NCBI GenBank assembly: GCA_035497855.1
Contig: DATKAS010000189.1
Location: 1 to 39,013, forward strand
Direction: 5' to 3'
Length of the DNA stretch: 39,013 nucleotides
Source: Acidimicrobiales bacterium
GTDB taxonomy: Bacteria > Actinomycetota > Acidimicrobiia > Acidimicrobiales > DATKAS01
Of this stretch, positions 3,589 through 31,835 are shown one piece after another. The notes under the pieces were generated by a model. That model was not told the origin of the DNA and made no database searches. It saw only the letters and a program-made list of their open reading frames with translations. The stretch's first letter is position 1; each line of letters opens with the position of its first letter. Position numbers and translations under genes: made by a program.

Positions 3589-3686
3589 AGGGTCTGATGC
3601 TGGCGTCGAGGGGTCGTGCCCGCATTGAACCCGAGTCCCTCGCGCGAATGGGGGATGGGCGTGGACCTGCCGTTCCGGCCAGCGGG

Positions 3687-12241: not shown

Positions 12242-12350
12242 CGCACGCGGGACGGCCCGCCGCGCGAATCGAGGACCGGTATCCTCGCCGAAGACCCGGC
12301 GGGCACACATCCCATCCTCATCACTCGGCCGGCGGGCGAGGCGAGCTCAC

Positions 12351-13154
12351 ATGGCGCGGTTCGGCGACTACCTCCTGGTGCGGCGGCTGGGTGAGGGTGC
12401 GCACGGCCGGTCGTACCTGGCCGAACCCCCGCTGCGGCTCGGCGTCAGCGACGAGTACGTCGTGCTCAAGGTCCTCCACCGTGAGGTGACGGAGGACGAG
12501 TTCTCGCGCGCTGCCGCACATCTCTCGTCGATCGCGTCCGTGCTGTCGCCCTACCTCGCCCGACCGCTCGACGTGCTTCGCGTCGATCGGTCCATGGGGG
12601 TCGTCACCGAGCACGTGGCCGGGGGATCGCTCGACGCTCCTTCCCGCCCGATCGGGCGTCGCGACGTGATGCAGGCCGTCGCCGATGCGGCCCTCGGAGC
12701 GCACGCTCTCCACGAGGCCGGCATCGCGCACGCGAACATCACGCCGTCGAACATCCTCCTCGGCACGCGGTGCGCAAAGCTCGCCGATGCGTCGCTGCTC
12801 GCGGTGCTCGACCCCGGTCGCACGACAGCGGGCACGAGGGCGGGCGACTCCGTCGATCTCACTGATCCCGCGCTGCTGCTCGGTGCTGAGCCTTCTCGCG
12901 CGTCAGACGTGTGGTCGCTCGGTGCGACCTTGCACCGCATGCTCACCGGTCAGTCGTTGTTCGGCGTCGTCCCCGACGTCGGCGAGACCGAGGCGCTTCG
13001 CCACGTCATCGTCGCTCCGGCGCGGCTCGGAGCGTCACTGTCGCCGGCGGAGGCGCGCATCATCGCGGACTGCGTGTCCGACGACCCCGTCGAGCGACCG
13101 CTCACGGCCGAGGCGCTCGCCACTCGACTTCGCTCGCTGCTCTTGGCGGCCTGA
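12351..13154 (+). CDS. Ser/Thr protein kinase-fold protein, predicted pseudokinase (cytosolic, kinase domain only)
   Basis: Retained: Gly loop LGEGAHGRSY, beta3 Lys (VVLKVL), DVWSLG and ERP. The catalytic loop reads IAHANITPSN (HRDxKxxN becomes HANxTxxN) and DFG reads DAS. Confidence 0.75.
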   Translation: MARFGDYLLVRRLGEGAHGRSYLAEPPLRLGVSDEYVVLKVLHREVTEDEFSRAAAHLSSIASVLSPYLARPLDVLRVDRSMGVVTEHVAGGSLDAPSRPIGRRDVMQAVADAALGAHALHEAGIAHANITPSNILLGTRCAKLADASLLAVLDPGRTTAGTRAGDSVDLTDPALLLGAEPSRASDVWSLGATLHRMLTGQSLFGVVPDVGETEALRHVIVAPARLGASLSPAEARIIADCVSDDPVERPLTAEALATRLRSLLLAA

Positions 13155-14365
13155 TGGCGGCGCCCGCGGTTCGACTCGACGACCTCCAGCTGACGGTCGT
13201 GCCCGGGGAGGGCCTCGTCGCGCGATTCGGCGAGGTCGCGCTCCTCGCGCTGTCTGGTGGGAGTGGCGCGGCGATCGACCAGCTCCTCGCGACATGTCGC
13301 GCGCTCGGCACCGCGCGCATCGACGAACCCGGCGCGATCCTCGTCGACCAGCTCGACGCGCTGCTCGGCGAGCGCATGCCGGCGAGCCCGTCCTTCTGTG
13401 TGCTCGCGACGTCCGCCGAGGGCGTGGAGGTCGTGCTCTGCGGCGAGGTCGAGGTCACCGTGGCGCGCGGAGGACAGGTGAGCCGGCATGCCGGGCCCGA
13501 TCCCGACACGTGGGTCGACCTGCTGGTCGACCAAGGGTTCGACTGGTTGGTTGCAGTCCCCCTCGGCTCGGCCGAGCCACCGAGCGACGTGCGCCTCGAC
13601 CTCCACGACGGTGTCGTTCCGGGGGGCGGGCTTCGGCTCACCCAGCGCGACCGTTTGCCGGGCGAGGTGCTCCCTCGACCCGAACCCGAGCAGAGCGAGC
13701 CGGCCCCCTCGGAGTCGGCGCCCGCGCCCGCGGCTGCGGAGGTGAGCCCGCCGCAGGTGGAGGCGCCCGGCGGATTCGTCTCGGTGCCGTTGTGGCGTGC
13801 CCCGGCGCCGGGCACGCGCGCGCCGCTCGCCGTCGCGACGACGTCCCTCGACGAGCCGGTGCCCGAGCCGGGTGAGGTGCTCGTGCCGACGCTCCGCTGC
13901 TCGGCGGGTCACCCGAACAACCCCGCGGCCACCCACTGCGGCTGGTGTGGTCGTTCGCTCGTCGACGGGACCGCTCGTCTGATCGATCGCCCCCAGCCCA
14001 CCCTCGGCATCCTTCTGCTCGACGACGGCTCCTCGTACACGCTCGACGCGGGCTACCTCATCGGATCGATGCCCGACCTCGCGAACGCGCTTTCGCGCGG
14101 TGATGTGCGCCCGCTCGTGCTGCCACAGCGCGACGGTGTGGTGCCGACGCATGCGGAGATCGCGTTGGACGGCTGGGCCGTGACCGTGGCCGATCGCGCA
14201 CCCGATGCAGGCACATGGGTGCGACGTCCGGGCGATCGCGAGTGGTCGCGTCTGGCTCCATCGCGCCCCGAGATGATCGTCGCGGAGTCACAGATCCGAG
14301 TCGGCGAGCGCGTGCTCACGTTCATCGCAGCGCGTCGGATCACCGGGGACGATCACTCGAGGTAG
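13154..14365 (+). CDS. FHA-domain protein with an N-terminal unknown domain, Pro-rich linker and zinc ribbon
   Basis: The ATG at 13154 overlaps the kinase stop (TGATG). Zinc ribbon CSAGHPNNPAATHCGWCG. C-terminal FHA-like GILLLDDGSSYTLDAGYLIGSMP...VPTHAEIALDGWAVTVADRAPDAGTWV...IRVGERVLTF. The tracked ORF starts at 12911 inside the kinase gene. Confidence 0.7.
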   Translation: MAAPAVRLDDLQLTVVPGEGLVARFGEVALLALSGGSGAAIDQLLATCRALGTARIDEPGAILVDQLDALLGERMPASPSFCVLATSAEGVEVVLCGEVEVTVARGGQVSRHAGPDPDTWVDLLVDQGFDWLVAVPLGSAEPPSDVRLDLHDGVVPGGGLRLTQRDRLPGEVLPRPEPEQSEPAPSESAPAPAAAEVSPPQVEAPGGFVSVPLWRAPAPGTRAPLAVATTSLDEPVPEPGEVLVPTLRCSAGHPNNPAATHCGWCGRSLVDGTARLIDRPQPTLGILLLDDGSSYTLDAGYLIGSMPDLANALSRGDVRPLVLPQRDGVVPTHAEIALDGWAVTVADRAPDAGTWVRRPGDREWSRLAPSRPEMIVAESQIRVGERVLTFIAARRITGDDHSR

Positions 14366-17378: not shown

Positions 17379-18539
17379 ATGGTCAGCCGGATGCCGCTCC
17401 GCAGAGCTGTGGGCGTGCTCGGACGGGCGGAGACAGCAGAGGTCGACGAGCACGGCACGATCCACGGCGTGGGTGACTCGTGGCGCGTCGGATGGTCGGT
17501 CGGCGACGTCGAGGGGCGCTGGCGCGATCCGGAGGTCGACGCGTCTGTGCGTTGGCGCGCGATCGACGACACCCCTGTGTTCGAGACGGCGATGCGGGTG
17601 AACGGTGGTGACGTGCGCCAGCGGGTGCTCGGCGCGGTGGACCGCGACGAGGTCTTCGTCGCCGTCGAAGTCGAGAACGACTCCCCGCACCCGATCGCGG
17701 TCGCGTTCTCGCGAGATGACAGCTCGCCGCCGTTGGTGACGGCTCGGCGTCCTCCTGCCGAGCCCGACGTCTTCCCCCTTCCGCACCGCGCTGTGCTTCG
17801 TGTCGCTCTGCCGCTCTCCTCGCCGAGCGGCGCGTGGTCCGAGCGCATGCCGACGGCCGCGCAGGTGTCCGCGGGCTGGCGAGCCGTTCGTGAGCGAGGT
17901 GAGCGCCTCGATGTGCCGGGTCCTTGGGCGGGACAGTTCGCGCTCGCACACGCGCAGCTGCTGCTCACCTGGCGCGGCGATCCCTCTGCCAGGCTCCTCG
18001 CAGAAGGCGCCCGATGGCGACTCGCGCACGACTCGCGCGCAGCCTCGCATGCGGAGGTCGCGGTGCTCGCGCAGCGTGTCGCCGACCACTGTCGAGCTGA
18101 TCCGACCGCGCGCGATCGAGCCGCGCTCGTCGAGGCTCGAGCACTCCTGTCGGCGCTTCGCGACGAGCGTGCTGCTGCGGACGTCGGTCGCGTGCTCGAC
18201 CTCGTCCGCGGGCTCGTCCCGGACGAGCCATCCGACGCTGCGAGCGTCGTCGCGCAGGGTCGGGCGATGGTCGTGGGCGATCAACCCCGTCGGGTCGTCG
18301 ATCTGCTTCCTGCGGCAGCGGAGTGGGAAGGCGCCGACCTCGCAGTGCACCACATCCCGTCGCGGTGGGGTGAGGTGTCGTTCGCGGTGCGTTGGCACGG
18401 CATGCGGCCGGCGTTGCTGTGGGAGGTCGAGCCGGATGGCCGCGGCCCGGTGACCGTGCGCGCTTCGGCGCTCGACCCAGCGTGGCGAAGTGACGAGCGC
18501 AGCGGCGAGGCGCTGCTCGCAGGGGTCAGCGCAACCTGA
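17379..18539 (+). CDS. Hypothetical protein (386 aa, soluble, no recognisable motif)
   Basis: Protein-like composition from MVSRMPLRRAVGVLG... to ...GEALLAGVSAT, unlike the Arg/Ser/Cys-rich opposite-strand frame. The start (ATG 17379 or 17391) is uncertain. Overlaps the GH38 3' end by 14 nt. Confidence 0.55.
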   Translation: MVSRMPLRRAVGVLGRAETAEVDEHGTIHGVGDSWRVGWSVGDVEGRWRDPEVDASVRWRAIDDTPVFETAMRVNGGDVRQRVLGAVDRDEVFVAVEVENDSPHPIAVAFSRDDSSPPLVTARRPPAEPDVFPLPHRAVLRVALPLSSPSGAWSERMPTAAQVSAGWRAVRERGERLDVPGPWAGQFALAHAQLLLTWRGDPSARLLAEGARWRLAHDSRAASHAEVAVLAQRVADHCRADPTARDRAALVEARALLSALRDERAAADVGRVLDLVRGLVPDEPSDAASVVAQGRAMVVGDQPRRVVDLLPAAAEWEGADLAVHHIPSRWGEVSFAVRWHGMRPALLWEVEPDGRGPVTVRASALDPAWRSDERSGEALLAGVSAT

Positions 18540-21177
18540 GCGTGGCGATGCGCCACGGCCCGAGCGCGAACGATCCCTCCACGGAGTCGAGCGTGCGACC
18601 GCGGAGGTCGACGAGCCAGCCGGTGTGGTGGCCGACGTCGACTTCGACGTCGTTCGCCGTGGGGTTGAACACCCGCACCTCGAGTGCTCCGCCGACCCGG
18701 CGCACCGACGACACCTCCGCGCCGCTGATGCGGAGCATGTCACCCACGTCGGACCAATCCCCCTGTCCTTGCCCCACCGCGACCTGCAACGGGACGAACG
18801 CGTCGTCGGCCATCGCGTAGGGGTCCACGTCACCGAGCGCGACGACGTACCGCCACGAGTGGCGGCCGAGCACCTGCGATCCCTCCAACTCGACGATCGG
18901 TCCGGCGGGAAGGGCGCGGAGCGCCATCGGGCCGCGAGAGAGAAACCCGGTCGCTCGAAGCAACGTCAGCGCGAGGGCGCGTGCGCCACCCTCGCGGACG
19001 TCGACGAGCTCGTATTCGGTGATCCCTTCGTGCGCGACCGTCAGGCACCCGGCCTGCACGAAGCGGCGGGACGGGAACGTCGGGAGGCCGACCTCGGTCG
19101 GACCCCCTTCTGCGGTCAGCCCCCGCTCCACGACCGCGAACGCGCACTCGGCGTTCGAGCTCATCGCAGGGACGGGCAACGGGAACCAGGCCCGGAGTCG
19201 ATGGTCACGGCATTGGTTGTCGAGCTCGACGGTGACCCGAGCGAACCGCTCGCCCGCCCGCAGCTCGATCAGCGTCTCCACCGTGATGTCACGTCCTCGA
19301 GTTCGTTCGCCGTCCTCGACACGCTCCGGCCAGTGGTATCGCGCGGTCATGAGGAGCGCACCGCGCAGCGGGCCGTGCTCGAGGGTCAGCACCGTGCACG
19401 AGTCGGGCCAGTCGACCACCGAATCGAACGGTGGGGGCGAGTAGTTGTACGTGTCGCCCTCGTCGCCGTCGTCGACCAGTCGGCCGAGCCCAGCGACAGA
19501 CATGCCGTCGGCGTTCGTCAACGAGAAGGTCGCCGACGTGGCGTCGACCTCGATGGTGACGAGCCCGTTCGACAGGCTCGGCGCGGCCAGCACGGCATCA
19601 CCGGCGACGACCTCGGGCACGTCGAGAGGAGCGGCTTCCACAGGACGCCACCCGAACCCCGGCACGTCGACGGCGCGCACGAGCAGGCTCGTGCGCGCGG
19701 GCTCGTGCAGGTGGTAGCGGAAGGTGGCAGTGGGATCCGCTGCCGCGAGCTCGGCGATGTGGGCCTTCACGGGTTGGGTCACGAGCCGCGGCGCGCCGGG
19801 CGCGGCGTACGAACGGACGTCGACCGAGCCGTCGTCGTGGCGCTCGACGTCGACGTGGTACAGGCCGTGGGTCCACTCGATCACGTCGCGGAGCACCGCT
19901 GCCGCGTTCGCGGCGGGCATCGTCCACATCAGCCGCGCACCGCCCAGATGACCGACGACTTGACCGTGCTCGTTGACAGCGTCGTCGTCGACCGTGATGG
20001 TGACGAGGCCGCTGCGAGCACGATGCGTGGGGTTGACGGCCACCGAACCCTGATGCGCGAGGTTCGCGCCGAGCGCGCGCACCGCGCGATGGGTGAGACC
20101 GTCCGCGATCTGGCGAGCCTGCGCGAAGCGGTGCAGCACGGTGTCGCACACCTCGTCGACCGAGCACGCGCAGATCGAGTCGTGCGCCGCGTTGCGGATC
20201 ACCTCGAGCCACGCTTCGTCCAAGAGCGCGGCAGGCCAGCGGTCCGCGGGGAGCAGCAGCGCGCTCAACGGTTCCGCCAGGCGTTCGAGGGCCCGCTCGG
20301 TGATCGCCGCGGCCCGTCGCACGTCGGCGCGGTTCGACGCGACACCCATCAGGAGGTTGGCGCGCGACCCGGAGCGGAGCTCGCCCTGCCAGGTCGGCAG
20401 GCCGGCGGTGGGTGCGCCCGCGAGGTAGGAGGGAAGCGAGGTCACCTCTATGTCGAGCTCGTCCTGCAGCGCGTTCGCCTCCGACACCACCTGGCCGAGG
20501 AAGGCCTGCGGCGCAAGGTGATCGGAGCCGTTCATGATCAAGATCGGCGCGTCGTCGTCGAAGAGGTCGTGCTGCGACTCGATCCATCCGTTCAGCCGCT
20601 CGAGCAGCGACTTCGCGTCGTCGGGGAGCGTGGCCCCGTTGCCGTAGCCGGCCGGGAGGTACTCGGCGCGCACCGTGCTGCCGTCGGGGCTCGACCACCA
20701 GAACGCGGTGCGCTGCACGGCGCTCGGCACGCCGCGCCACACGACCGCGTCCGCGAACCCGAACTGACGCAGCAGCTGGGGCATCTGCGCGATGTGCCCG
20801 AACATGTCGGGCAGGTAGCCGACCTGCATCGCTCCGCCGAAGCGGGCCGCGCGGTCGAGGCCGAGCTGGAGGTCGCGGATGATCGTCTCGCCCGACACGA
20901 GGAACTCGTCCATGAGCACGTACCAAGGGCCCATCGCGAGACGGCCGGTGGCGGCGAGGCGACGCAGCGGCTCCTCGGCCTGCGGACGGACTGCGAGGTA
21001 GTCGTCGACGACTGCCATCTGGCCGTCGAGCAGGAAGTGCGCGTACGCCGGGTCGGCCTCGAGTCGGGGAAGCAGGTCGTCGAGCAGATCGACGAGGCGG
21101 AGGCGAAAGGTCTGGAAGGGCGAGTACCACTCGCGATCCCAGTGGGTGTGCGGGACAACTGCCACTCGTCTCGCCAT
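18526..21177 (-). CDS. Glycoside hydrolase family 38 protein (alpha-mannosidase / mannosylglycerate hydrolase-like)
   Basis: 883 aa. N-terminal VVPHTHWDREWYSPFQ...GPWYVLMDEFLVSGE...GYLPDMFGH is diagnostic of the GH38 catalytic domain. Confidence 0.85.
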   Translation of the reverse strand: MARRVAVVPHTHWDREWYSPFQTFRLRLVDLLDDLLPRLEADPAYAHFLLDGQMAVVDDYLAVRPQAEEPLRRLAATGRLAMGPWYVLMDEFLVSGETIIRDLQLGLDRAARFGGAMQVGYLPDMFGHIAQMPQLLRQFGFADAVVWRGVPSAVQRTAFWWSSPDGSTVRAEYLPAGYGNGATLPDDAKSLLERLNGWIESQHDLFDDDAPILIMNGSDHLAPQAFLGQVVSEANALQDELDIEVTSLPSYLAGAPTAGLPTWQGELRSGSRANLLMGVASNRADVRRAAAITERALERLAEPLSALLLPADRWPAALLDEAWLEVIRNAAHDSICACSVDEVCDTVLHRFAQARQIADGLTHRAVRALGANLAHQGSVAVNPTHRARSGLVTITVDDDAVNEHGQVVGHLGGARLMWTMPAANAAAVLRDVIEWTHGLYHVDVERHDDGSVDVRSYAAPGAPRLVTQPVKAHIAELAAADPTATFRYHLHEPARTSLLVRAVDVPGFGWRPVEAAPLDVPEVVAGDAVLAAPSLSNGLVTIEVDATSATFSLTNADGMSVAGLGRLVDDGDEGDTYNYSPPPFDSVVDWPDSCTVLTLEHGPLRGALLMTARYHWPERVEDGERTRGRDITVETLIELRAGERFARVTVELDNQCRDHRLRAWFPLPVPAMSSNAECAFAVVERGLTAEGGPTEVGLPTFPSRRFVQAGCLTVAHEGITEYELVDVREGGARALALTLLRATGFLSRGPMALRALPAGPIVELEGSQVLGRHSWRYVVALGDVDPYAMADDAFVPLQVAVGQGQGDWSDVGDMLRISGAEVSSVRRVGGALEVRVFNPTANDVEVDVGHHTGWLVDLRGRTLDSVEGSFALGPWRIATLRLR

Positions 21178-21237: not shown

Positions 21238-21645
21238 GTGCGCGTCGCGTTCGGCACTGACGAGCAAACAGCGGTGACCGACGCGATCGTCGCGCTCCTC
21301 ACGGACCGTGGGCACGATGTCGACGTCGTCGCGCTCGGCGAGCCGTGGCCCGACGTGGGCCGGCTCGTCGGGGAGGCCGTGGCGTCGGGCAGCTGCGATC
21401 GAGGCGTCGTGTGCTGCTGGACGGGCACCGGGGTGAGCATCGCCGCGAACAAGGTGCCCCGCATCCGGGCCGCGCTCTGCACGGATGCCGTGACCGCGGA
21501 GGGCGCGCGGCGGTGGAACGACGCGAACGTCCTCGCAATGGGCCTTCGGCTCACGTCATCGGTCGTCGCGGCCGAGATGGTCGACGCCTTTCTCACGACT
21601 GACGTCGAACGAGCGGAGCTCGCGAACATCGAGAGGGTGCCATGA
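21238..21645 (+). CDS. rpiB: Ribose-5-phosphate isomerase B family (RpiB/LacA/LacB)
   Basis: VVCCWTGTGVSIAANKVPRIRAALCTD...ARRWNDANVLAMG. GTG start. Confidence 0.8.
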   Translation: MRVAFGTDEQTAVTDAIVALLTDRGHDVDVVALGEPWPDVGRLVGEAVASGSCDRGVVCCWTGTGVSIAANKVPRIRAALCTDAVTAEGARRWNDANVLAMGLRLTSSVVAAEMVDAFLTTDVERAELANIERVP

Positions 21646-22658
21646 CCGATCTCGACGAGTCCCGCGTGCGACTCACGGAGTGGACCACGTGCGGCGGTTG
21701 CGCGGCCAAGTGGGGAGCGGCACCGCTGTCTGCGTTGGTGCGAGAGCTCGTCTCGGAAGCCGATGCCCAGCTGCTCGTCGGCCTCGCGCCGTTCGACGAC
21801 GCGGCTGTCTACAAGGTGACCGAGGACCTCGCGATCGTCTCGACGACCGACTTCTTCCCGCCGCTCGTCGACGATCCTGCCGACTTCGGAGCGATCGCAG
21901 CGGCCAACGCCTGCAGCGACGTGTTCGCGATGGGTGGTCGGGTCGTGATGGCGCTGAACATCTCCGCCTTCCCCGAGCGGATGCCGGTCGAGGCCATCGG
22001 CGCGATCCTCTCCGCGGCGGCCGAGGTCGTGCGCGAGGCGGGCGGCGTCGTCGCCGGCGGGCACACGATCCGCTCCGAGGAGCCGATCTTCGGGCTCGCG
22101 GTGCAGGGTCTCGTGCACCCGGACCGGATCTTCACGAAGGCGGGCGCGCGGCCCGGCGACCTGCTCGTGCTGTCGAAGCCTCTCGGCACCGGCATCGTGC
22201 TCGCGGGCGGCACCGAGGACGAGAAGGCCAGTGCGATCGCGCGCATGAAGGTGCTCAACCGGTCGGCGTCCGAGGCGCTGTCAGCGATGGGCGATGCCGT
22301 CCATGCCGTCACCGACGTCACGGGGTTCGGCCTCGCCGGGCACGGCTGGGAGATGGCGGAGCGCTCCGGCTCGCGGCTCGTGTTCGATGTCGCTCGACTT
22401 CCGTTCTACGAGGGCGCACTCTCCGCGGCGAAGGCGGGCACGCGCACCGGCGGCGACGCTCGCAATCGCGAGCATCTGCACGACCGAGTCGACTCGACGG
22501 CGCCCCCCGAGGTCGAGGCGCTGTGCTTCGATCCGCAGACTTCCGGAGGACTCCTCGCGTCGATCGCCCCGGCCGCGTCCGACGCGGCGGAGGCCGTGGG
22601 GTTCACGATCGTCGGCGAGGTGGTCGCGGGGCCCGCCGGAGTCACGTTGCGCGCCTGA
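21642..22658 (+). CDS. selD: Selenide, water dikinase (selenophosphate synthetase), Cys-type
   Basis: N-terminal LTEWTTCGGCAAKWG places Cys three residues before Lys, as in the SelD glycine-rich loop. AIR-synthase-like body with VTDVTGFGLAGHGWEMA. ATGA overlap with rpiB. Confidence 0.75.
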   Translation: MTDLDESRVRLTEWTTCGGCAAKWGAAPLSALVRELVSEADAQLLVGLAPFDDAAVYKVTEDLAIVSTTDFFPPLVDDPADFGAIAAANACSDVFAMGGRVVMALNISAFPERMPVEAIGAILSAAAEVVREAGGVVAGGHTIRSEEPIFGLAVQGLVHPDRIFTKAGARPGDLLVLSKPLGTGIVLAGGTEDEKASAIARMKVLNRSASEALSAMGDAVHAVTDVTGFGLAGHGWEMAERSGSRLVFDVARLPFYEGALSAAKAGTRTGGDARNREHLHDRVDSTAPPEVEALCFDPQTSGGLLASIAPAASDAAEAVGFTIVGEVVAGPAGVTLRA

Positions 22659-23338: not shown

Positions 23339-23905
23339 CTACTTCTGCAGCACGATCTCCGTCTCGATCTCGAACTGGATGTTCTTCGAGACGAGCAGGC
23401 CGCCCTTCTCGAGCGGCATGTTCCAGGTCAGTCCCCAGTCTTCGCGGTTGACCTCGCCGCGGGCGGAGAACACGGCGCGGTTGCCGCCCCACGGGTCGGT
23501 CACGACACCGCCGAGCTCGACGTCGAGGGTGATCGGCTTGGTCACGCCGCGGACCGTCAGGTCGCCGGTGACCGAGCCCTCGCTGCCTTTCCAAGCGACG
23601 TTCGTGCTCTTGAACGTGATCTGCGGGTGGCTCTCGACGTCGAAGAAGTCGGCCGACCGCAGGTGGCCGTCCCGGTCGGCGTTCCCGGTGGTCAACGAGC
23701 CCGCGTCGAGGGTGACCTCGACCGCCGAGGCGTTGGGGTCGTCGCTGATCGTGACCGAGCCGGACACGTCGGTGAACCGGCCGCGGACCTTCGTGAAGAC
23801 GAGGTGCCGGCCGATGAACTCGACCGTGGTGTGGCTGGGATCGATCGCCCAGACGCCGGCGACCGGCGTCTCGGTTCCGTCGATGGTGCGGGTGGCAGTG
23901 CTCAT
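23339..23905 (-). CDS. yceI: YceI family (polyisoprenoid-binding lipocalin-like) protein, paralogue 1
   Basis: WAIDPSHTTVEFIGRHLVFTKVRGRF...GNADRDGHLRSADFFDVESHPQITFKS...GDLTVRGVTKPITL. SD GAAGGAG upstream. Confidence 0.9.
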   Translation of the reverse strand: MSTATRTIDGTETPVAGVWAIDPSHTTVEFIGRHLVFTKVRGRFTDVSGSVTISDDPNASAVEVTLDAGSLTTGNADRDGHLRSADFFDVESHPQITFKSTNVAWKGSEGSVTGDLTVRGVTKPITLDVELGGVVTDPWGGNRAVFSARGEVNREDWGLTWNMPLEKGGLLVSKNIQFEIETEIVLQK

Positions 23906-24443: not shown

Positions 24444-25004
24444 CTACTGCTGCACGAGCTCGGTCTCGATCTCGATCTCGACCTTCTTCGACACGAGCAC
24501 GCCCCCCGCCTCGAGCGCCATGTTCCACACCAGGCCCCAGTCCTCGCGATCGACATCACCCGACGCGGAGAACGCCGCGCGGACGCCGCCCCACGGGTCG
24601 CTCACGATGCCGTTGAACGCCAGGTCGAGCGTGATCGGCTTGGTCACGTCGCGCACCGTCAGGTCGCCGACCATCCGTCCCCGCACGCCGCTCCACTCGA
24701 TCGACGTGCTCTTGAAGGTGATCGAGGGGTACTTCTCCACGTCGAAGAAGTCGGCCGACCTCAGGTGGCCGTCGCGGTCTGCGATCCCGGTGCTCACGGT
24801 CGCGGTCTCCAGGCTCACCTCGACGGTGGACTCGTTCGGGTTCTCGGCGACGACGACCGTCCCCGACATGCCCGTGAAGCGACCTCGGACCTTCGTGAAG
24901 ACGAGATGCCGGCCGATGAACTCGACAGACGTGTGGGCGGGATCGACCGTCCACACCCCGGGCTTCGGTGCTTGGATGCCGATGACACGCGTTGCGTCGC
25001 TCAT
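24444..25004 (-). CDS. yceI: YceI family protein, paralogue 2
   Basis: WTVDPAHTSVEFIGRHLVFTKVRGRF...IADRDGHLRSADFFDVEKYPSITFKS...GDLTVRDVTKPITL is closely similar to paralogue 1. ATG at 25002-25004 with GGGGAGGA upstream. The tracked ORF extends to 25472 as junk. Confidence 0.9.
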   Translation of the reverse strand: MSDATRVIGIQAPKPGVWTVDPAHTSVEFIGRHLVFTKVRGRFTGMSGTVVVAENPNESTVEVSLETATVSTGIADRDGHLRSADFFDVEKYPSITFKSTSIEWSGVRGRMVGDLTVRDVTKPITLDLAFNGIVSDPWGGVRAAFSASGDVDREDWGLVWNMALEAGGVLVSKKVEIEIETELVQQ

Positions 25005-25087: not shown

Positions 25088-25879
25088 CTATGCGAACGAA
25101 ACGGGCGCGCTGAACGCGGCGCGGCGCGATGCCCTTCGCAGCGTGAGAAGCACGGCCGGCCCGAGCACGAGGATCGCGATCGCGTTCGTGATCGCGCGGC
25201 CCACGTCCCATCCCCATGTGGACGTCGCGAGCGTGAACAGCAGGAAGCGATGGAGGTTCTCGGTGATCGGCGCGCCGGCCACGTAGGAGAGCTGGCTGCC
25301 CGTGCCGGTGGTGAACGGCCAGAACCACAGGTCGAGGAGCATCCCGTAGGCGAACGCGGACGCGGCGCCGTAGGCAGCGAGCAGCGCGATCTCGCGCCGG
25401 CCGCGCGCGGGCGGCAGCAATCCCGCCCCCATGCCGACCCACGACGCGGCGAGCATCTGGAACGGGAGCCACGGGCCGATGCCGCCTGTGATCACGGCCG
25501 AGGCGAACAGCGTCGTCGAGCCGAGCACGAAGCCGAACCCCGGCCCGTACACGCGTCCTCCGAGCACGAGGAGGAAGAACACGGTCTCGAGTCCCGCGGT
25601 GCCCGCGCCCATCGGCCGCAGCGCTGCGCCGATGGCAGAGAGGACACCGAGCATCGCGATCGCCTTCGTGTCCATGCGCCCTCCGGTCATCTCCGACAGC
25701 AGCACGGCGATGAGGCAGGGGAGGAGCGCAGCGAACAGGAAGGGCGCGTCGTGTCCGTGAGCGAGACCGCTCGGTGGTGTCACGAGGAACGGCCAGAGGA
25801 ACATCATCGAGCCCGCGGCGGACACGAGCACGAGCGCGGTGGTGGACCGCGTGCTCAAGCCGAGGAGTCGTGTCTTCAC
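25088..25879 (-). CDS. ECF transporter substrate-specific (S) component
   Basis: 263 aa, about 6 TM helices, Gly/Ala-rich. Last gene after the EcfT and EcfA-A' genes. GTG start 13 nt after the ATPase stop. Confidence 0.65.
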   Translation of the reverse strand: MKTRLLGLSTRSTTALVLVSAAGSMMFLWPFLVTPPSGLAHGHDAPFLFAALLPCLIAVLLSEMTGGRMDTKAIAMLGVLSAIGAALRPMGAGTAGLETVFFLLVLGGRVYGPGFGFVLGSTTLFASAVITGGIGPWLPFQMLAASWVGMGAGLLPPARGRREIALLAAYGAASAFAYGMLLDLWFWPFTTGTGSQLSYVAGAPITENLHRFLLFTLATSTWGWDVGRAITNAIAILVLGPAVLLTLRRASRRAAFSAPVSFA

Positions 25880-25892
25880 GCGAGGGCCGCTG

Positions 25893-27461
25893 TCATGTCA
25901 GGGCCTGCTCGACCTCGCGCACCGTGAGCCACGGCGACGGAGCGAGGATCTTCGCGATCTGCGGTGCGAACGCGGGCGACGAGCACACGACGTCCGCTGT
26001 CGGCCCGTCGGCCACCACCTCGCCTTCGGCGAGCACGACCACGCGGTCGGCGACCGCTGCGACGAGCTCGACATCGTGGGTTGCGATCACGATCGCGTGA
26101 CCGGCATGCGCCAGCTCGGCGACGATCGCCGCGAACCGCTCTTTCGCGCCGGGGTCGAGGCCGCGGGTCGGTTCGTCGAGCAGGACCACGACGGGCGCTG
26201 CAGTGAGCTGGAGGGCGAGGACGAGCGCGAGCCGTTGACCTTCGGACAGGTCTCGTGGATGGGCATCGACCCCGACGTCGACTGCGAACCGCTCGAGGAT
26301 CGCGCGGCACGTGCCCGGTGCGGTGCCGGTGTCGGCATCGGCCTGCTCGCACTCCGCCGCGACGGTCGGGAGGTACAGGAGGTCGGACGGAGCCTGGGGC
26401 ACGAGGCCGATGCGAGCTGGCCCGTCGACGGTTCCCATGAGCCGCGGCCCTGATCCTTGGATCGCCCACAGCAGGGACGACTTGCCGGAGCCGTTGCGTC
26501 CCATCAACGCAACCACCTCGCCACGATGCAGGTCGAGGTCGACCTCGCGCACCGCGACTGTTGTGTCGTAGACGACCGTGATGCCCCGCGCGACGACCGC
26601 GATGTCGCCGCCCGACGAGGCGAGCTGACGTCCGCGCGAGGGCGCGGCCCGTTCGGCGAGCGCGGTTCGGAGCTCGCTCGCGTGGCGACGAGCCTCGCGC
26701 ACGGAGAGGGGAGGCGGCATCCATCCTTGCGACTTGGCCAGCTGGACGACCGGCGGAGCGAGCGACGTGTGCAGCAGGACCTCGCGGGGATCGCCGTCGA
26801 CGACGGTGCCGTCGCAGAGGAGCACCACGCGATCGCAGTGGTGCACCACCCGCTCGAGCCGGTGCTCGGCGAGGACGACGGTGACGCCGAGGTCGTGCAC
26901 GAGTCGCGTGACCGCAGCGAGCACGTCCTCGGCGGCCGTCGGATCGAGCGCCGACGTCGGCTCGTCGAGCACGAGCACGCGAGGGTGCGCGGTGAGCACC
27001 GACCCGATCGCGACTCGCTGCTGCTGGCCTCCCGACAGGGCGCGGAGTGGACGAGAGCGGAGATCCGCGATGCCGAGGAGGTCGAGCGTCTCCTCGACGC
27101 GCTTGCGCATCACCCCAGATGCGATGCCGAGCTGCTCCATCGAGTACGCGAGCTCTTCCTCCACCGTGTCGGTCACGAACCCCGCGAGCGGGTCCTGGCC
27201 GACGTAGCCGACCGTCTCGGCCATGTCGCGGGGCTTGTGCTGGCGCGTGTCGAGCCCGTCGACGACGACGCGGCCCGTGAGGTGCCCACCGGTGAAGTGC
27301 GGCACGAGCCCGTTGATCGTGCCGAGCAGGGTCGACTTGCCCGAGCCGGTCGGACCGATGACGAGGCACAGCTCGCCCTCGTCGATGGTGAGATCGATGT
27401 CGCGCAGCACGGGACGCTCGTTGCCGGCGTGCGTGAACGAGTCGATCTGGAGCCGGATCAC
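25893..27461 (-). CDS. ECF transporter fused double ATPase (EcfA-EcfA')
   Basis: Two ABC cassettes: [11 protein letters not shown] / [11 protein letters not shown] / VLVLDEPTSALD and GRNGSGKSSLL / LSEGQRLALVL / VVLLDEPTRGLD. GTG at 27459-27461 forms a GTGA overlap with the ecfT stop. The tracked ORF extends to 28199 as junk. Confidence 0.9.
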   Translation of the reverse strand: MIRLQIDSFTHAGNERPVLRDIDLTIDEGELCLVIGPTGSGKSTLLGTINGLVPHFTGGHLTGRVVVDGLDTRQHKPRDMAETVGYVGQDPLAGFVTDTVEEELAYSMEQLGIASGVMRKRVEETLDLLGIADLRSRPLRALSGGQQQRVAIGSVLTAHPRVLVLDEPTSALDPTAAEDVLAAVTRLVHDLGVTVVLAEHRLERVVHHCDRVVLLCDGTVVDGDPREVLLHTSLAPPVVQLAKSQGWMPPPLSVREARRHASELRTALAERAAPSRGRQLASSGGDIAVVARGITVVYDTTVAVREVDLDLHRGEVVALMGRNGSGKSSLLWAIQGSGPRLMGTVDGPARIGLVPQAPSDLLYLPTVAAECEQADADTGTAPGTCRAILERFAVDVGVDAHPRDLSEGQRLALVLALQLTAAPVVVLLDEPTRGLDPGAKERFAAIVAELAHAGHAIVIATHDVELVAAVADRVVVLAEGEVVADGPTADVVCSSPAFAPQIAKILAPSPWLTVREVEQALT

Positions 27462-28606
27462 GAGATCCCCACCATCGTCGGGACGCGCGCACCCGCCGGA
27501 TCGTGCGGCGCGGCGAGCCGCGGGGGAGGCGCGATCCAGGCGGGCAACGCGCCGGCGAGGATCGCGAGGAGAGGGACGAGCTGGATGGTGGGCCACTCCA
27601 ACGGCTGTAGGGACGGGTTCAGGTTGTCGGGGTTCACGTGGCCGGCGAGGAACAGGCCGGTGGCGACGAACAGGCCGGACGCCGCGACGAGCCACTCTGC
27701 GGTCCGCCACGGATCGGGGCGGTAGCGGGTCGTGTGGGCGCCTCGCCCGGCGAGCGCGAGGCCGCACACGGCGGCGAGCGCGCCGAGCACGAGTGTGGGC
27801 AGCCCGAGCACCGCGGGTGTCGTCGCGTCGAGCAACCCGTACACGCCCACGCACACACCGCAGAGGCCGGCGAGCACGAGTGCGCCGCTCCCGATGCGTC
27901 GCGCCGAGCTCGTCTCCGTCGTGCGCCCGTGGCCGCGAGCGTCCATCGACGCCGCGAGGAGGATCGATCGATCGAGGGCGTCCGTCATGACCGGCACGAC
28001 GATCTGACGGAGCAGGTGGCGACGAGATGGCGTGCCGCCCCGGAGCGCGCGGGCGCGTCGCACGCGGCGAGCGCTCTCGACGAGCTGCGGCGCGACGGTG
28101 AGCGCGACCGTGATCGCGACACCGATCTCGTGCAACGAGCTGGGCGCCGACTTCAGCAACCGCTTCGGGTTGGCGAGCACGTTCGCGGCGCCGATGCACA
28201 AGATCAGCGTCGCGAGCCGGAGCCCGTCGTAGAACGCGGCGAGCATCCCCTCGAGCGACACTGGACCACCGACGCGGATGCCTTGCGCTGCGGATGGCAA
28301 CGGCAGCTCTGGCAGATGGAACAGCACATGCTCGCCGTACTGACCGTCAAGCACGGTGCGCAGCGCGACGCGCACCGCGATCACGACGAGCGCGGCGATC
28401 ACGTACCCATGGAACCCAGAGCTCCACGGAGCGTCGCCACGCCGGGCCGACACGACGAACGCAACGACGGCGATGATCGCCACGAGCAGCAGTGGGTTCG
28501 TCGTGCGGGTGGCCGCGGTCGCCATGCCGAGTGCCCAGATCCACCACGCGGCGGGATGCAGCTCACGGGGCAGACGTTCGAGGCTCGTCGTGCGGCGCGT
28601 GCTCAC
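27458..28606 (-). CDS. ecfT: ECF transporter transmembrane (T) component, CbiQ/EcfT family, unusually long (382 aa)
   Basis: Multi-TM protein in T-component position, with a CbiQ-like coupling region (ARRVRRARALRG...RSILLAASMDARG) and additional C-terminal TM helices. GTGA overlap with the upstream gene. Confidence 0.7.
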   Translation of the reverse strand: MSTRRTTSLERLPRELHPAAWWIWALGMATAATRTTNPLLLVAIIAVVAFVVSARRGDAPWSSGFHGYVIAALVVIAVRVALRTVLDGQYGEHVLFHLPELPLPSAAQGIRVGGPVSLEGMLAAFYDGLRLATLILCIGAANVLANPKRLLKSAPSSLHEIGVAITVALTVAPQLVESARRVRRARALRGGTPSRRHLLRQIVVPVMTDALDRSILLAASMDARGHGRTTETSSARRIGSGALVLAGLCGVCVGVYGLLDATTPAVLGLPTLVLGALAAVCGLALAGRGAHTTRYRPDPWRTAEWLVAASGLFVATGLFLAGHVNPDNLNPSLQPLEWPTIQLVPLLAILAGALPAWIAPPPRLAAPHDPAGARVPTMVGIS

Positions 28607-29424
28607 GCGCGCGCCCGCCGTCGTCGCCGCACGATCATCACGCCGGCGGTGCCGATGCCGACCACGACCGCCGCCGAGATGACGAAGCCGAGCGGGCTGC
28701 CTCCATCGTCACCATCCTCGCCCAGGTCGACTGCGATCGTCGTCGTTGCCGCGGTCGTCGTTGCCGCGGTCGTCGTCGAGCCGGCGGTCGTGGCGGTGGT
28801 GACGACCGTGGTGGTTGCCGCGGTCGTGGTTGCCGCGGTCGTCGTTGCCGCGGTCGTCGTTGCGCCGGTGATCGGCGCACTCGTCGCTGTCGTGGTGGTG
28901 ACCACCGCCGGCGTCGACGCGCAATCGCTCCTGTTCAGGGTCGCCGGCGGCGACGTCGCCGACGCCGGAGGAGCGAAGCGCGGCGCTGGGATCTCCGACG
29001 CGACCTTGTCGAGCGAGAACGACCAGCCCTCGAATGTCCCTGGTGGCGGGACCCGGCTCCCCGCGCCGAGCGTGCTGTAGCACCAGGCCCCGCCGGGCGC
29101 AGCGAGCCAATAGCCCCAATACCCCGAGGCCGGCGACGTGTTCACGCACGGATCGTTCGCCGGCTGGTTCGCGATGCGGCACACGAAGCCTGGGAACCGC
29201 TGTGCGGTCTGGTAGCCGATCCCTGCGCGCGTGAGCGCGTCGAGTCCGGATGACACCTGGCCTTCGGCGCAGACGACGTGGATGCCACCACCGAGGTCTT
29301 GGAAGTCGACGACGACGGTGACGCCGCTGTCGCCGGCACACGCACCGGTCTGCTGGCGCGGTGTCGCCGATGCGATCGGCAACAGCGACAGCGCAGCCAT
29401 GACGAGTGCGAGTGGTTCGATCAC
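28603..29424 (-). CDS. Secreted, C-terminally membrane-anchored DUF4430-like (transcobalamin beta-domain-like) protein with a Thr/Ala-rich stalk
   Basis: Signal-like VIEPLALVMAALSLLPIASA. Cys-rich globular domain with GYWGYWLAAPGGAWCYSTLGAGSRVPPPGTFEGWSF. Long TTTAA-repeat linker, then TM helix FVISAAVVVGIGTAGVMIV plus an RRRRRARA tail. GTG at 29424, 10 nt after the upstream stop. Confidence 0.6.
   Translation of the reverse strand: MIEPLALVMAALSLLPIASATPRQQTGACAGDSGVTVVVDFQDLGGGIHVVCAEGQVSSGLDALTRAGIGYQTAQRFPGFVCRIANQPANDPCVNTSPASGYWGYWLAAPGGAWCYSTLGAGSRVPPPGTFEGWSFSLDKVASEIPAPRFAPPASATSPPATLNRSDCASTPAVVTTTTATSAPITGATTTAATTTAATTTAATTTVVTTATTAGSTTTAATTTAATTTIAVDLGEDGDDGGSPLGFVISAAVVVGIGTAGVMIVRRRRRARA
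28741..28873 (-). repeat. 15-nt tandem repeats (cgtcgttgccgcggt and variants) encoding the Thr/Ala stalk
   Basis: Perfect tandem copies at 28741-28755 and 28756-28770, with near-copies from 28814-28873. Confidence 0.85.
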
Positions 29425-29434
29425 GACGCAGTGC

Positions 29435-31027
29435 TCACGACAGGTCGTGCATGAACCGTCGCGAAGCGACCGCGACCAGCCCGAGACCACTCGCGATCAG
29501 CAGCAGCGCGATGGGAAGGCTGCGCGTCGCGTCGTCGCCCGTTCGGGGCAGCTCGCCCGAGCCGGACGGGGCGGTCGTCGGCGCGGTGGTCGCGGACCCG
29601 CCACCCGGTGCCGTGGTGGTCGCCCCTGCGACCGTCGTGGATGTCGTCGATGTCGTCGTCGTCGTCGATCCCGTGACTTGCAGCGCGATCGAGAGGCTCT
29701 TGCTGGAGATCTGCCCCGCCATCTCGACTTGGTGGGCCCCCGCAGGAGTGTTCGCGGGGACGACGAACGTGAACGACGCGAGACCGTTCGCGTCCGCGTT
29801 GACGGTGCCGAGGATCACCGGATCGGAGAACAGCGTGATGCGCACAGGCTCGTTCGGGTTGAAGCCGTTGCCGCCCACTGCCACCGTGTCTCCCGGCTTC
29901 GCGGTCTCGGTCGAGATGGTGATGCCGCCCGACGAGGTGCCCCCGCCACTGCCACCGCCTCCGCCCGAGGGGAGCGTGACCTGCGGGAGGGCGAGCACGC
30001 CCTGTGACGTCGCCCGCCGGAACGGATCGCGTTCAGCGGGAAGCCCGTGTGCGATCGCGTCATCACGCTGGCCGGGGTCGTACGCGATGACACCGATGTC
30101 CGCGCTGGCCGCGCCCGCGTTCGTGTCAGTGAGCTGCAGCGACTGGATCCACACACCGGCCTTGTTCGCCGCGGCGGTCTGCCCAGCCGCCCGCAGTGCT
30201 TGGGCGATGATGCCCGTCGAGTTCGCGTTCAGGCTCGCCGTCGGTCCCGAGCCGCGGAAGGCGCCACTCGCGTCCTGCTGCCCGAGCAGCCACGTGACCG
30301 CCTCGCTCACGGCGCCCGATGCTGCGGTCTGGCCGACGAGCGCTTGGATGGCGAGCCCGGTCGCGTCGGGGTCGGCCTCCGCATCGCTCGCGCATGTGTC
30401 GCCGCTGTCGTAGAAGAGTCGGAAGCCGCCTGCCGGGCACTGCTGTGCGAGCAAGAAGGTGATGGCTTCGGCAGGCACGCCGCCGCTGGTGCGCGCGAGG
30501 CCCAGGATGTCGAACGCCTGGCCGAACCCGTTGCTGAAGTCGCCGAACGCGCTGGCGTCGGAGAAGCGACCGGTCTGGCCTCCGCTCGTCCGCATCAGCG
30601 CCCGTAGCTCGGTCTCGATGTTCAGGCCGCCGAGGTTCGACGAGTCCACGCCGAACACCTTCGTCATGTACAGGAGCTTCCCCATCGGTCCCGCGTACCG
30701 CTCCGTGGTGCCCGGTGCGCCGTCCGTGACGTAGCTGGTCGCGTTTGCCGTGACATTGCTGACCGTCGCTTGCGTGTCGGCTGCGCTCGCGCGTCCACCA
30801 CCGGCGAGGGCGAGGACGAAGTCGATCGTGAGGCCCCAGTCCGTGAAGCCCGGAGCTCCCTTGAAGCCGAGCTGGTGGTTGTTCGCAGCGAGCTCGTGCG
30901 ACAGCCAGTCGAGCGCGCTCGCCGTCGGGTCGGTCGCAGCATGCGCCGGGGCGACCGGCGCGACGAGCGCGACACAGGCGAAGACGACGGCGACAGCAGC
31001 TGCGAGGCGGCGGGCCAGTGATCTCAT
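29435..31027 (-). CDS. LPXTG-anchored surface protein with a prenyltransferase/squalene-oxidase-repeat (alpha/alpha toroid) domain and an Ig-like domain
   Basis: Signal peptide MRSLARRLAAAVAVVFACVALVAPVAPAHA. Repeats of the type LLAQQCPAGGFRLFY and LLGQQDASGAFRGSG. Gly-rich hinge, then a beta-rich domain (ITISTETAKPGDTVAVGGNGF...HQVEMAG). Thr-rich stalk, and sorting signal LPRTG + hydrophobic helix + RRF. ATG at 31025-31027. Confidence 0.7.
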   Translation of the reverse strand: MRSLARRLAAAVAVVFACVALVAPVAPAHAATDPTASALDWLSHELAANNHQLGFKGAPGFTDWGLTIDFVLALAGGGRASAADTQATVSNVTANATSYVTDGAPGTTERYAGPMGKLLYMTKVFGVDSSNLGGLNIETELRALMRTSGGQTGRFSDASAFGDFSNGFGQAFDILGLARTSGGVPAEAITFLLAQQCPAGGFRLFYDSGDTCASDAEADPDATGLAIQALVGQTAASGAVSEAVTWLLGQQDASGAFRGSGPTASLNANSTGIIAQALRAAGQTAAANKAGVWIQSLQLTDTNAGAASADIGVIAYDPGQRDDAIAHGLPAERDPFRRATSQGVLALPQVTLPSGGGGGSGGGTSSGGITISTETAKPGDTVAVGGNGFNPNEPVRITLFSDPVILGTVNADANGLASFTFVVPANTPAGAHQVEMAGQISSKSLSIALQVTGSTTTTTSTTSTTVAGATTTAPGGGSATTAPTTAPSGSGELPRTGDDATRSLPIALLLIASGLGLVAVASRRFMHDLS

Positions 31028-31144
31028 CGAGATGCTCGCTTTCGGTTGCGCCTGCGCAATTCCCGACCGAAGCGTGCATCGCGCCTGCGAGCACGGACCC
31101 CGGCTCTCGTTCCGCAGACCACGACGGTGGTGTGAGCCAATGCA

Positions 31145-31243
31145 CTCGCAGACAGGCATTCCGACTCCCCGAGGCGAGCGAGCTCGCCATGGGCTACGGC
31201 TGCGGGTCAGTGCCGGACTTCGACCGGCTTCCCCCGTCTGAGA
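31145..31243 (-). promoter_or_regulatory. Cobalamin (B12) riboswitch aptamer in the 5' leader of the surface-protein/ECF operon
   Basis: Minus-strand RNA reads cuCAGAC-GGGGGAAgcCGGUCgAAgUCCGGCaCUGaCCCGCaGCcGUAgccc...(hairpin gcgagcucgcucgc)...ggGGAGUCGGAAuGCCUGUCUGcgag. It has the GGGAA..GGU..AA..UCC..CCCGC..GUA core and a B12-box-like AGUCGGAAUGCCUGUC. CAGAC/GUCUG can close P1. About 115 nt of expression platform follow before the ATG at 31027. Confidence 0.7.
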
Positions 31244-31277
31244 GCGATATGTCGAAGCGTGAACCTACCATTGGTCC

Positions 31278-31835
31278 GTGGCTGACGACTCCCCCCAGAC
31301 GCTCGTCGGCATCGCGTTCGGCGACACATTCCGCGCGCAGGAATTCCTCACCGCCGCGCAGCGTCTCGCCGCGAACCGGCACATGCACCTGAAGGACGCG
31401 GTGTTCGTGATCAAGCGCGAGGACGGCACGACCGTCGTGCGCGAGACGATCGACCCGCAGCCCGGGCGTTCGGCGCTGTCGGCGGCAGTGTGGGCGAGCC
31501 TGCTCGGACTCCTGCTCGGCGGCCCCGTCGGATGGCTCGCCGGTGGCGCGATCGGTGCAGCCGGAGGCGCGGCGGCGGCCAAGCTCGTCGACCTCGGCGT
31601 CCCGGATGAGTGGGTCTCGTGGTTCCGGGAAGAGGTGCAGCCGGGCACGTCCACGCTCGTGCTGCTCGTCACCGAGCTCGACCGCGATGCGCTCGTGACC
31701 GAGCTCGAGCGGTTCAACCCGGCAAAGCTCGTCTACGCGAACCTCGAGCCTTACTGGCTCGACAAGATCCACGAGGCGCTCGGCGAGACCAGCGCCTCGA
31801 ATGAGCCGTCAGGACTCGACGAACTCTCGCAGTAG
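31278..31835 (+). CDS. DUF1269-family membrane protein (general-stress-like, Gly-zipper TM segment)
   Basis: LVGIAFGDTFRAQEFLTAAQRLA...AVFVIKREDGTTVV...SLLGLLLGGPVGWLAGGAIGAAGGAAAAKL. GTG start. Confidence 0.65.
   Translation: MADDSPQTLVGIAFGDTFRAQEFLTAAQRLAANRHMHLKDAVFVIKREDGTTVVRETIDPQPGRSALSAAVWASLLGLLLGGPVGWLAGGAIGAAGGAAAAKLVDLGVPDEWVSWFREEVQPGTSTLVLLVTELDRDALVTELERFNPAKLVYANLEPYWLDKIHEALGETSASNEPSGLDELSQ

Follow-up and report, generated by a model that had tools for sequence, protein, structure and literature searches.

A candidate corrinoid-scavenging operon in Acidimicrobiia: two surface proteins with separate anchoring signals and the fold types of eukaryotic B12 carriers, encoded upstream of an ECF transporter

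Results

Locus layout and cobalamin riboswitch

Analysis of a 39-kb stretch of contig DATKAS010000189.1 (hereafter the window), originating from a member of the Acidimicrobiia, identified a run of five genes on the minus strand behind a cobalamin riboswitch. [quoted passage not shown] The features of the locus, listed in the order in which they are read, are the following:

31134–31283, minus strand: cobalamin riboswitch aptamer, RF00174 (cmscan, above the gathering score)
31028–31133, minus strand: leader of ~105 nt from the aptamer to where gene 1 starts (expression platform)
29435–31027, minus strand: gene 1 (530 aa), with signal peptide, alpha6/alpha6 toroid, Ig-like domain, Thr-rich stalk and LPRTG motif (open reading frame, ORF)
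29933–30937, minus strand: toroid domain of gene 1, residues 31–365 (AlphaFold, Foldseek and profile match)
29537–29551, minus strand: LPRTG sortase motif of gene 1, residues 493–497 (read from the sequence)
28603–29424, minus strand: gene 2 (273 aa), with signal peptide, transcobalamin-beta-like domain, Thr/Ala stalk, transmembrane helix and poly-Arg tail (ORF, inferred start)
28960–29349, minus strand: globular beta-grasp domain of gene 2 (SLBB, transcobalamin-like; AlphaFold and Foldseek)
28739–28863, minus strand: 15-nt tandem repeat coding for the Thr/Ala stalk of gene 2 (Tandem Repeats Finder, TRF)
27458–28606, minus strand: ECF T (transmembrane coupling) subunit of the CbiQ family (PF02361)
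25893–27461, minus strand: fused ECF A-A' double ATPase (two ABC_tran domains)
25088–25879, minus strand: ECF S (substrate-specific) component of an uncharacterised subfamily (PF12822-type; annotation of homologues)

The five genes are packed in the manner of a single operon, with spacing of −4 to +13 nt across the junctions. Gene 2 starts 10 nt after the gene 1 stop codon, and its own stop overlaps the GTG start of the T subunit gene by 4 nt. The stop codon of the T subunit gene is in turn overlapped by the GTG start of the double ATPase gene, and a 13-nt gap leads to the S component gene, the last of the run. An initial annotation of the window, made from the sequence alone, had placed both surface-protein genes between 28603 and 31027, and the ORFs, on the minus strand, agreed with this placement. 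For gene 2, where the first start in the ORF lies at 29490, the N-termini of homologues and the 10-nt distance to the gene 1 stop make the GTG at 29424 the most likely start.

The riboswitch was located by cmscan at 31283–31134 (minus strand) as a full-length match to the RF00174 model, with 34.9 bits (E = 2.2e-5; the gathering score is 31.5). RF00174 was the sole Rfam family above its gathering score in the whole window, and the riboswitch core was invariant in 8 aligned examples. A dedicated ECF importer directly downstream of the surface-protein pair, under apparent cobalamin control, had been part of the initial annotation and is borne out by the riboswitch score and the five-gene operon. 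A scan of the leader for intrinsic-terminator-like sites found none and its minimum free energy fold was no better than those of shuffled sequences (z = 0.36).

Gene 1, a putatively wall-anchored toroid protein

The product of gene 1 opens with a signal peptide (MRSLARRL...APAHA), which is followed by a 335-residue globular part, a Gly-rich linker, an Ig-like segment, a Thr-rich stalk and the LPRTG motif. The motif is followed in the sequence by a hydrophobic stretch of 20 residues and an RR basic tail. Models of wall anchors fell slightly short of their cutoffs (PF00746, 18.7 versus 20 bits; TIGR01167, 15.3 versus 15.9 bits), and NF058592, which covers the Ig-like segment, was below its cutoff (E = 5e-6); homologues of gene 1 carry the annotation of LPXTG-anchored proteins. 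The LPRTG motif, Ig-like domain and Thr-rich stalk reported initially were all recovered in this way.

Searches returned 268 homologues of gene 1, several of them named prenyltransferase/squalene oxidase repeat protein. The best NCBIfam match was SCO2321_fam (1.3e-21, 76.9 bits against a cutoff of 300). A Pfam scan of gene 1 gave no direct Prenyltrans/SQHop match, and a family profile built from 58 homologues aligned with squalene-hopene cyclase 1gsz over its repeats (E = 1e-11). The AlphaFold model of the toroid, composed of ~14 helices, had a predicted local distance difference test score (pLDDT) of 94.7 and a predicted TM-score (pTM) of 0.92. Its top Foldseek neighbours were the beta subunits of RabGGTase and GGTase3 together with class II terpene cyclases, namely small squalene-hopene cyclases and drimenyl diphosphate synthase (E from 4e-6, TM-score ~0.6), and glycoside-hydrolase toroids ranked next. 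Profile, model and structural neighbours all uphold the initial reading of prenyltransferase/squalene-oxidase-type repeats in an alpha/alpha-toroid fold. The only Cys residues in gene 1 are an invariant pair at toroid-domain positions 167 and 182 (Cys197 and Cys212 of the full-length protein), which probably form one disulfide, as would fit an extracellular location.

Gene 2, a membrane-tethered beta domain

In gene 2, a short signal peptide precedes a globular domain of ~125 residues with conserved Cys, Trp, Tyr and Gly positions, a Thr/Ala stalk of ~90 residues, a transmembrane helix and an RRRRRARA tail, in agreement with the Cys-rich domain, stalk, C-terminal helix and poly-Arg tail noted initially. 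Six Cys residues are present in the mature part, of which four are invariant or nearly so in the family. The stalk is partly encoded by a repeat with a period of 15 nt (TRF, 7.7 copies, 78% matches) that gives repeated ATTTA pentapeptides, and its length could vary among strains.

The C-terminus of gene 2 (28606–28710) contains a family-conserved D-L-x(8)-G-S-P-x-G segment followed by the transmembrane helix and the Arg cluster, with Gly-Gly ahead of it in the window protein. This arrangement resembles a sorting signal that lacks LPXTG. None of the C-terminal sorting models in NCBIfam matched gene 2, and the segment may be a simple tail anchor.

A slightly longer segment than the globular domain (28921–29364) was modelled with AlphaFold at a pLDDT of 91.3. 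The model has a beta-beta-alpha-hairpin-beta-beta topology, made up of strands E14–20 and E28–34, helix H40–46, the hairpin E51–53/E61–64 and strands E82–88 and E111–117. Foldseek ranks 1–17 in the PDB were occupied only by beta domains of transcobalamin or haptocorrin and by 3u7z, a small Ruminococcus gnavus protein deposited as 'putative metal binding protein', with probabilities of up to 0.99. Generic ubiquitin-like beta-grasp domains ranked below these 17, with probabilities of 0.28 or less. The TM-score to the isolated human beta domain 5no0 was 0.64, and E values across the top 17 were 0.03–0.4, a weak range that lends support at the level of the fold.

A beta-hairpin that follows the helix is the mark of the transcobalamin-like clade within the SLBB superfamily (Burroughs et al., PMC1796856). 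As modelled, gene 2 combines a beta-grasp core with a hairpin in this position, which places it, at the level of the fold, in that clade. It also shares the clade's setting: it is surface-anchored, has an alpha/alpha toroid partner and lies in a CbiQ/CbiO-type operon. The two fold types of eukaryotic cobalamin carriers, foreseen initially as separate, surface-tethered polypeptides, are both present at the locus, judging by the models, the Foldseek rankings and the sequence signals.

A profile search of 1.84 billion representatives yielded 4202 members of the gene 2 family at E ≤ 1e-3. Homologues are assigned PF28005, and the best NCBIfam match of gene 2 was SCO2322_fam (4.7e-7, 30.3 bits against a cutoff of 85). 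The DUF4430 signature proposed for gene 2 did not hold: Pfam DUF4430 (PF14478) was unmatched by the window protein at E ≤ 0.1 and by 22 family domains (the window protein and 21 relatives) at E ≤ 10. Both Pfam matches expected in the initial annotation, DUF4430 for gene 2 and Prenyltrans/SQHop for gene 1, accordingly failed to appear for the window proteins.

ECF transporter genes

The T subunit matched PF02361 with 30.2 bits (cutoff 25). The double ATPase contains two ABC_tran domains (E = 1.2e-45) and scored 266 bits with TIGR04520 and 263 bits with TIGR04521, both under the equivalog cutoffs. The S component, in which six or seven helices can be counted as hydrophobic segments, reached 27.0 bits with PF12822 against a cutoff of 30.7. 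Its homologues form a very large family, carry PF12822 and bear the annotation of ECF transporter S component; the one NCBIfam match, to folT, was faint. The T subunit, two ATPase domains and the S component are encoded contiguously, as in ECF transporters of the dedicated (group I) type.

Conservation of the locus

A scan of one genome per species yielded at least 576 loci with a relative of the gene 2 domain, and the counts that follow refer to the best 79. These come from Acidimicrobiia (Microthrixaceae, Ilumatobacteraceae and Iamiaceae), from many actinomycetes (Streptomyces, Embleya, Micromonospora, Saccharothrix, Actinomadura, Thermomonospora and others), from Euzebya and from one Chloroflexia metagenome-assembled genome. 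A gene 1 homologue was found directly 5' of gene 2 in 54 loci and elsewhere in the locus in another 15, which brings those with gene 1 within 7 kb to 69 of 79. The T subunit gene lies directly 3' of gene 2, likewise in 69 loci.

Riboswitch cores were searched in the loci with nhmmer, on sequence only. Any match was obtained in 71 of the 79 loci; a match on the operon strand, at most 900 nt from the first gene, was present in 65 of 71 loci for which that much flanking sequence was available. When 20 loci were tested against RF00174, 11 exceeded the gathering score at the operon position, and several of those that failed scored near the threshold. The co-occurrence of the pair with ECF genes and a riboswitch, which the initial annotation had put forward as a check, extends over a wide range of Actinomycetota.

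Across all loci, elements ahead of toroid or SLBB genes scored 32–44 bits. A locus of Micromonospora carbonacea is flanked by two classical cobalamin riboswitches (600–813 and 11646–11865), and the operon elements lie far below their scores of 101 and 88 bits. The operon riboswitch may belong to a shorter variant class.

In four Embleya loci (L044, L045, L049 and L056), the homologues of gene 1 and gene 2 are several kb apart, each behind its own riboswitch-core match. One of the four, L045, was also tested against Rfam, and both of its riboswitch copies passed the gathering score. A further SLBB copy follows the toroid gene.

Extra SLBB paralogues were present in 31 of the 79 loci. For instance, locus L026 encodes a small lipoprotein-like SLBB paralogue (11498 to ~12030, minus strand) that has its own riboswitch (12164–12264, minus strand) and is convergent with the S component gene. 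A second riboswitch on the opposite strand, accompanied by an SLBB paralogue, was also seen in L002, L003, L005, L012 and L017. Adjoining the paralogue of L026, the gene at 12275–13240 resembles a MeaB/ArgK-type GTPase as far as its sequence can be read.

Both domains also occur in one chain. In an isolate genome of Actinomadura hibisca (L079), a single 516-aa ORF comprises a signal peptide, an SLBB domain, a linker and a toroid, with a riboswitch-like element ahead of it and ECF genes adjoining. Four of the 4202 members of the gene 2 family (P0326, P0360, P0276 and P0241) have one or two SLBB domains and one or two toroids in the same chain and carry an LAxTG or LPxTG anchor. Three apparent fusions from metagenomes (P0267, P0274 and P0269) were set aside: the transmembrane helix of the gene 1 anchor runs into the signal peptide of gene 2, and these are probably gene-calling or frameshift artefacts. 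The fusion of the two folds in relatives argues that they work together, and given such fused arrangements the split state in the window reads as one arrangement of several and no special invention.

Discussion

Proposed function

We consider it fairly likely that the operon is a cobalamin-riboswitch-repressed system for scavenging corrinoids (B12 and its relatives) at the cell surface of a member of the Acidimicrobiia. This function is supported by context, namely the riboswitch directly upstream, the tight operon, the folds of both surface proteins, the conserved loci with their riboswitches, the separate riboswitch-core matches of the two Embleya homologues, the extra SLBB paralogues, the fusions in relatives and an earlier prediction for proteins of this type (PMC1796856). 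At low intracellular cobalamin, the riboswitch would permit expression of the five genes. Gene 1 would be exported, and sortase would attach it to the cell wall, where it would display the alpha6/alpha6 toroid, and gene 2 would be exported and held in the membrane by its C-terminal helix, displaying the transcobalamin-beta-type beta-grasp domain on its stalk of ~90 Thr/Ala-rich residues. The toroid and the beta domain, jointly or in sequence, would bind a corrinoid as transcobalamin, intrinsic factor and haptocorrin do with their alpha and beta domains. Such capture would raise the local corrinoid level at the membrane and pass the corrinoid to the S component, after which import would be powered by the T subunit of CbiQ type together with the fused A-A' ATPase.

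The analysis shows the gene structure, the folds, the anchoring signals, the riboswitch, the compact operon, the conservation of the module with its riboswitch and the fused folds of relatives; it is from these that we infer the corrinoid ligand, the sandwich of two proteins and the transfer to the S component. The more specific proposal, in which the wall-bound toroid and the membrane-bound beta domain close round the corrinoid as a two-chain 'transcobalamin' and deliver it to the S component, is put forward tentatively, as a possibility that falls a little short of an even chance.

Several observations weigh against corrinoid scavenging by the pair. The relation of gene 2 to transcobalamin is at the level of the fold only: neither Cobalamin_bind nor DUF4430 of Pfam was matched by gene 2, and profiles of the gene 2 family found no transcobalamin in the PDB. 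The nearest structures to gene 1 are prenyltransferases and terpene cyclases, transcobalamin is absent from its 50 best Foldseek neighbours in the PDB, and sequence and profile searches of the PDB with gene 1 gave no transcobalamin match either. The structural resemblance to cobalamin carriers expected initially for both proteins was found for gene 2 in its top 17 neighbours, which are carrier beta domains or 3u7z, and for gene 1 in the type of fold, an alpha6/alpha6 toroid. The S component, searched as a single sequence and as a 20-member profile against all PDB chains at E ≤ 10, matched no S component, CbrT and BtuM included; with no solved relative detected, its substrate is not readable from homology. 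Two loci (L004 and L036) have the riboswitch, gene 2 and the ECF genes with no gene 1 within the flank, so the toroid is not obligatory. The sole split system studied by experiment, that of Lactobacillus sakei, is tied to haem and not to B12 (bioRxiv 10.1101/864751). Finally, a literature search of incomplete coverage returned no report of binding of a ligand or corrinoid by any bacterial member of these families.

Alternative explanations

The main rival is that the SLBB domain of gene 2 alone serves as a corrinoid-binding accessory of the importer, with the toroid of gene 1 in another surface role, such as binding a different ligand or a wall polymer, serving as a scaffold or keeping B12 from competing neighbours instead of feeding the importer. 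It would account for the two loci in which riboswitch, gene 2 and the T, A and S genes stand with no gene 1 nearby, and it sits well with stand-alone, riboswitch-controlled SLBB paralogues being common and with the structure of gene 1 resembling prenyltransferases, terpene cyclases and glycoside-hydrolase toroids more closely than transcobalamin. We nevertheless regard it as unlikely: gene 1 lies within 7 kb of gene 2 in 69 of 79 loci, toroid and SLBB share one chain in several relatives, and where gene 1 homologues stand apart from gene 2, in Embleya, they have riboswitch-core matches of their own, with a score above the gathering threshold in L045.

A second alternative is import of haem or of another non-corrin tetrapyrrole, as assigned to Lsa1836-1840 of L. 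sakei. There, an ECF transporter with S, A-A' and T parts is encoded with separate transcobalamin-beta-like and alpha-like secreted proteins, and the assignment comes from haem accumulation in a deletion mutant and its complementation (bioRxiv 10.1101/864751). A haem function is hard to square with the near-universal cobalamin riboswitch control, since a cobalamin riboswitch, and no iron or haem regulator, is found here and in nearly all relatives. We rate this alternative as highly improbable.

Gene 1 might otherwise be an extracellular enzyme of the terpene-cyclase or prenyltransferase type, linked to B12 through regulation only. Its profile matches the repeats of squalene-hopene cyclase, enzymes head its Foldseek list, and its EADPDAT segment (30440–30460, residues ~219–225) aligns as D-x-D-A-T with the DxDDTA motif of cyclases. 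The motif is incomplete, the third Asp being replaced by Ala; the family consensus is ADTDAT, against DPDAT in the window, with the central Asp invariant. The family alignment contains no invariant His, and the sole Cys residues are the conserved pair, which fits a disulfide rather than the zinc site of prenyltransferases. Neither the catalytic DxDD of cyclases nor the Asp/Cys/His zinc site of prenyltransferases is therefore present in gene 1. We read the domain, from these residues, as a non-catalytic alpha6/alpha6 toroid, in which D-x-D-A-T may be left over from an ancestral cyclase or may serve to bind a ligand. Extracellularly, prenyl diphosphates are not expected as substrates, and in relatives the toroid is fused to a beta domain of the B12-carrier type. 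An enzymatic gene 1 thus found little support, and we give it scarcely any credence.

Least probable of all, and with similarly little support, is import of cobalt ions with the surface proteins as metal-binding accessories: it could draw on the T subunit's match to the Pfam family named 'Cobalt transport protein', on the cbiO-type models that the ATPase matches and on the metal-binding title of 3u7z, but CbiQ and CbiO are generic ECF module families, the operon encodes no CbiM/CbiN-type component, the S component belongs to the vitamin type of PF12822 and the accessory folds are those of corrinoid carriers.

Relation to known systems

The corrinoid-scavenging idea is not new and reproduces a prediction made in 2007. 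The bacterial SLBB proteins of transcobalamin-like type reported by Burroughs, Balaji, Iyer and Aravind bear signal peptides and anchors of the Gram-positive kind; their SLBB domains are fused to alpha/alpha toroids on either side, a second SLBB paralogue is often present, and the genes lie in operons with CbiO and CbiQ. The authors proposed scavenging of B12 or a precursor, and acquisition of animal transcobalamin from such bacteria (PMC1796856). The window shares with those proteins the anchored transcobalamin-like beta-grasp domain, the alpha/alpha toroid and CbiQ/CbiO, and related loci share the extra SLBB paralogues. The earlier work stresses toroid-SLBB fusions, low-GC Gram-positives and archaea (PMC1796856), whereas here the two folds lie on separate, differently anchored chains, and the hosts are Acidimicrobiia and actinomycetes. 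Riboswitch control is documented here over 79 loci, and the function is a prediction in both studies (PMC1796856).

In L. sakei, Verplaetse et al. described lsa1836-1840 as a set of ECF parts (S component, fused A-A' ATPase and T subunit) together with two exported proteins on separate chains, and proposed a capture-and-transfer model with haem as the substrate from the deletion mutant (bioRxiv 10.1101/864751). The likeness to the window, compared by architecture alone, lies in the five genes and the split alpha-like/beta-like pair with an ECF transporter. The differences are the haem assignment, the lack of any mention of a cobalamin riboswitch and the description of the proteins as soluble, in contrast to the wall and membrane anchoring signals seen here (bioRxiv 10.1101/864751). 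With the prediction of 2007 (PMC1796856) and the split pair and ECF mutant of L. sakei (bioRxiv 10.1101/864751) on record, the initial annotation overstated the extent to which such a system was new and uncharacterised.

Transcobalamin, intrinsic factor and haptocorrin of eukaryotes likewise combine an alpha6/alpha6 toroid with a beta-grasp domain bearing a hairpin insert. They are single soluble chains, alpha then beta, taken up through receptors, whereas the window has two chains with no detectable sequence-level similarity to them. With two chains, no Pfam match and no match in sequence or profile searches of the PDB, the pair falls outside the eukaryotic cobalamin-binding family.

ECF-CbrT of Lactobacillus delbrueckii, an importer of cobalamin and cobinamide, was also first predicted from the B12-related genes around it (Santos et al. 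2018, PMC5997447). CbrT operates through a shared ECF module, and extracytoplasmic binding proteins have not been described for it (PMC5997447). In the window, the ECF module is dedicated to the operon.

NCBI and Pfam already have family models for the actinobacterial proteins. The best matches of the window pair are the NCBIfam families of the Streptomyces coelicolor pair SCO2321/SCO2322, and Streptomyces loci share the gene order and the riboswitch. The scores are far below the cutoffs, so the window proteins are relatives and not members of these equivalogs. The description of the SCO2321 family is that of a membrane protein, whereas gene 1 of the window carries an LPXTG-type motif. Within the incomplete coverage of our literature search, no experimental work was found on SCO2321-2324 or on B12-binding surface proteins of Gram-positive bacteria.

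Significance

Proven routes of B12 uptake include BtuFCD, ECF-CbrT, BtuM and mycobacterial BacA, together with the surface proteins BtuG and BtuH of Bacteroides. Surface capture of scarce B12 by Gram-positive bacteria is poorly understood, and the window contributes a clean split and apparently doubly anchored example from Acidimicrobiia. To our knowledge, transporters of the ECF class are generally held to lack dedicated extracytoplasmic proteins for substrate capture; binding and hand-off by the pair, if true, would revise the view that they do without binding proteins. The origin of transcobalamin would be touched on too, and the operon would represent a living relative of the bacterial stock behind the B12 carriers of animals. 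Conservation of the module and its riboswitch over many actinomycetes, including cultured Streptomyces, Micromonospora and Actinomadura, makes the system experimentally accessible.

Other genes in the window

A gene for a DUF1269 membrane protein (31278–31835, plus strand, E = 4e-17) is divergent from the operon, and the start of its ORF shares a few bases with the riboswitch at the latter's 5' end. Two YceI-like genes (23339–23905 and ~24444–24965, both minus strand) follow on the same strand just past the S component, and a gene for a CorA-type Mg2+/Co2+ channel (34335 to ~35225, minus strand, E = 4e-49) lies 3 kb from the riboswitch. All of these (DUF1269, both YceI copies and CorA) were considered as parts of the module and rejected, as their synteny extends to the closest relative, L001, only. 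On the same grounds, the YceI genes are probably outside the module and the closeness of CorA to a B12 operon is probably a coincidence.

Further away, and with no bearing on the operon, the window encodes an AIR-synthase-family protein (21642–22658, plus strand), the N-terminus of which reads like that of selenophosphate synthetase (SelD), a GH38 alpha-mannosidase-like protein (18526–21177, minus strand) and a PIN-PhoH protein (2257–3807, minus strand).

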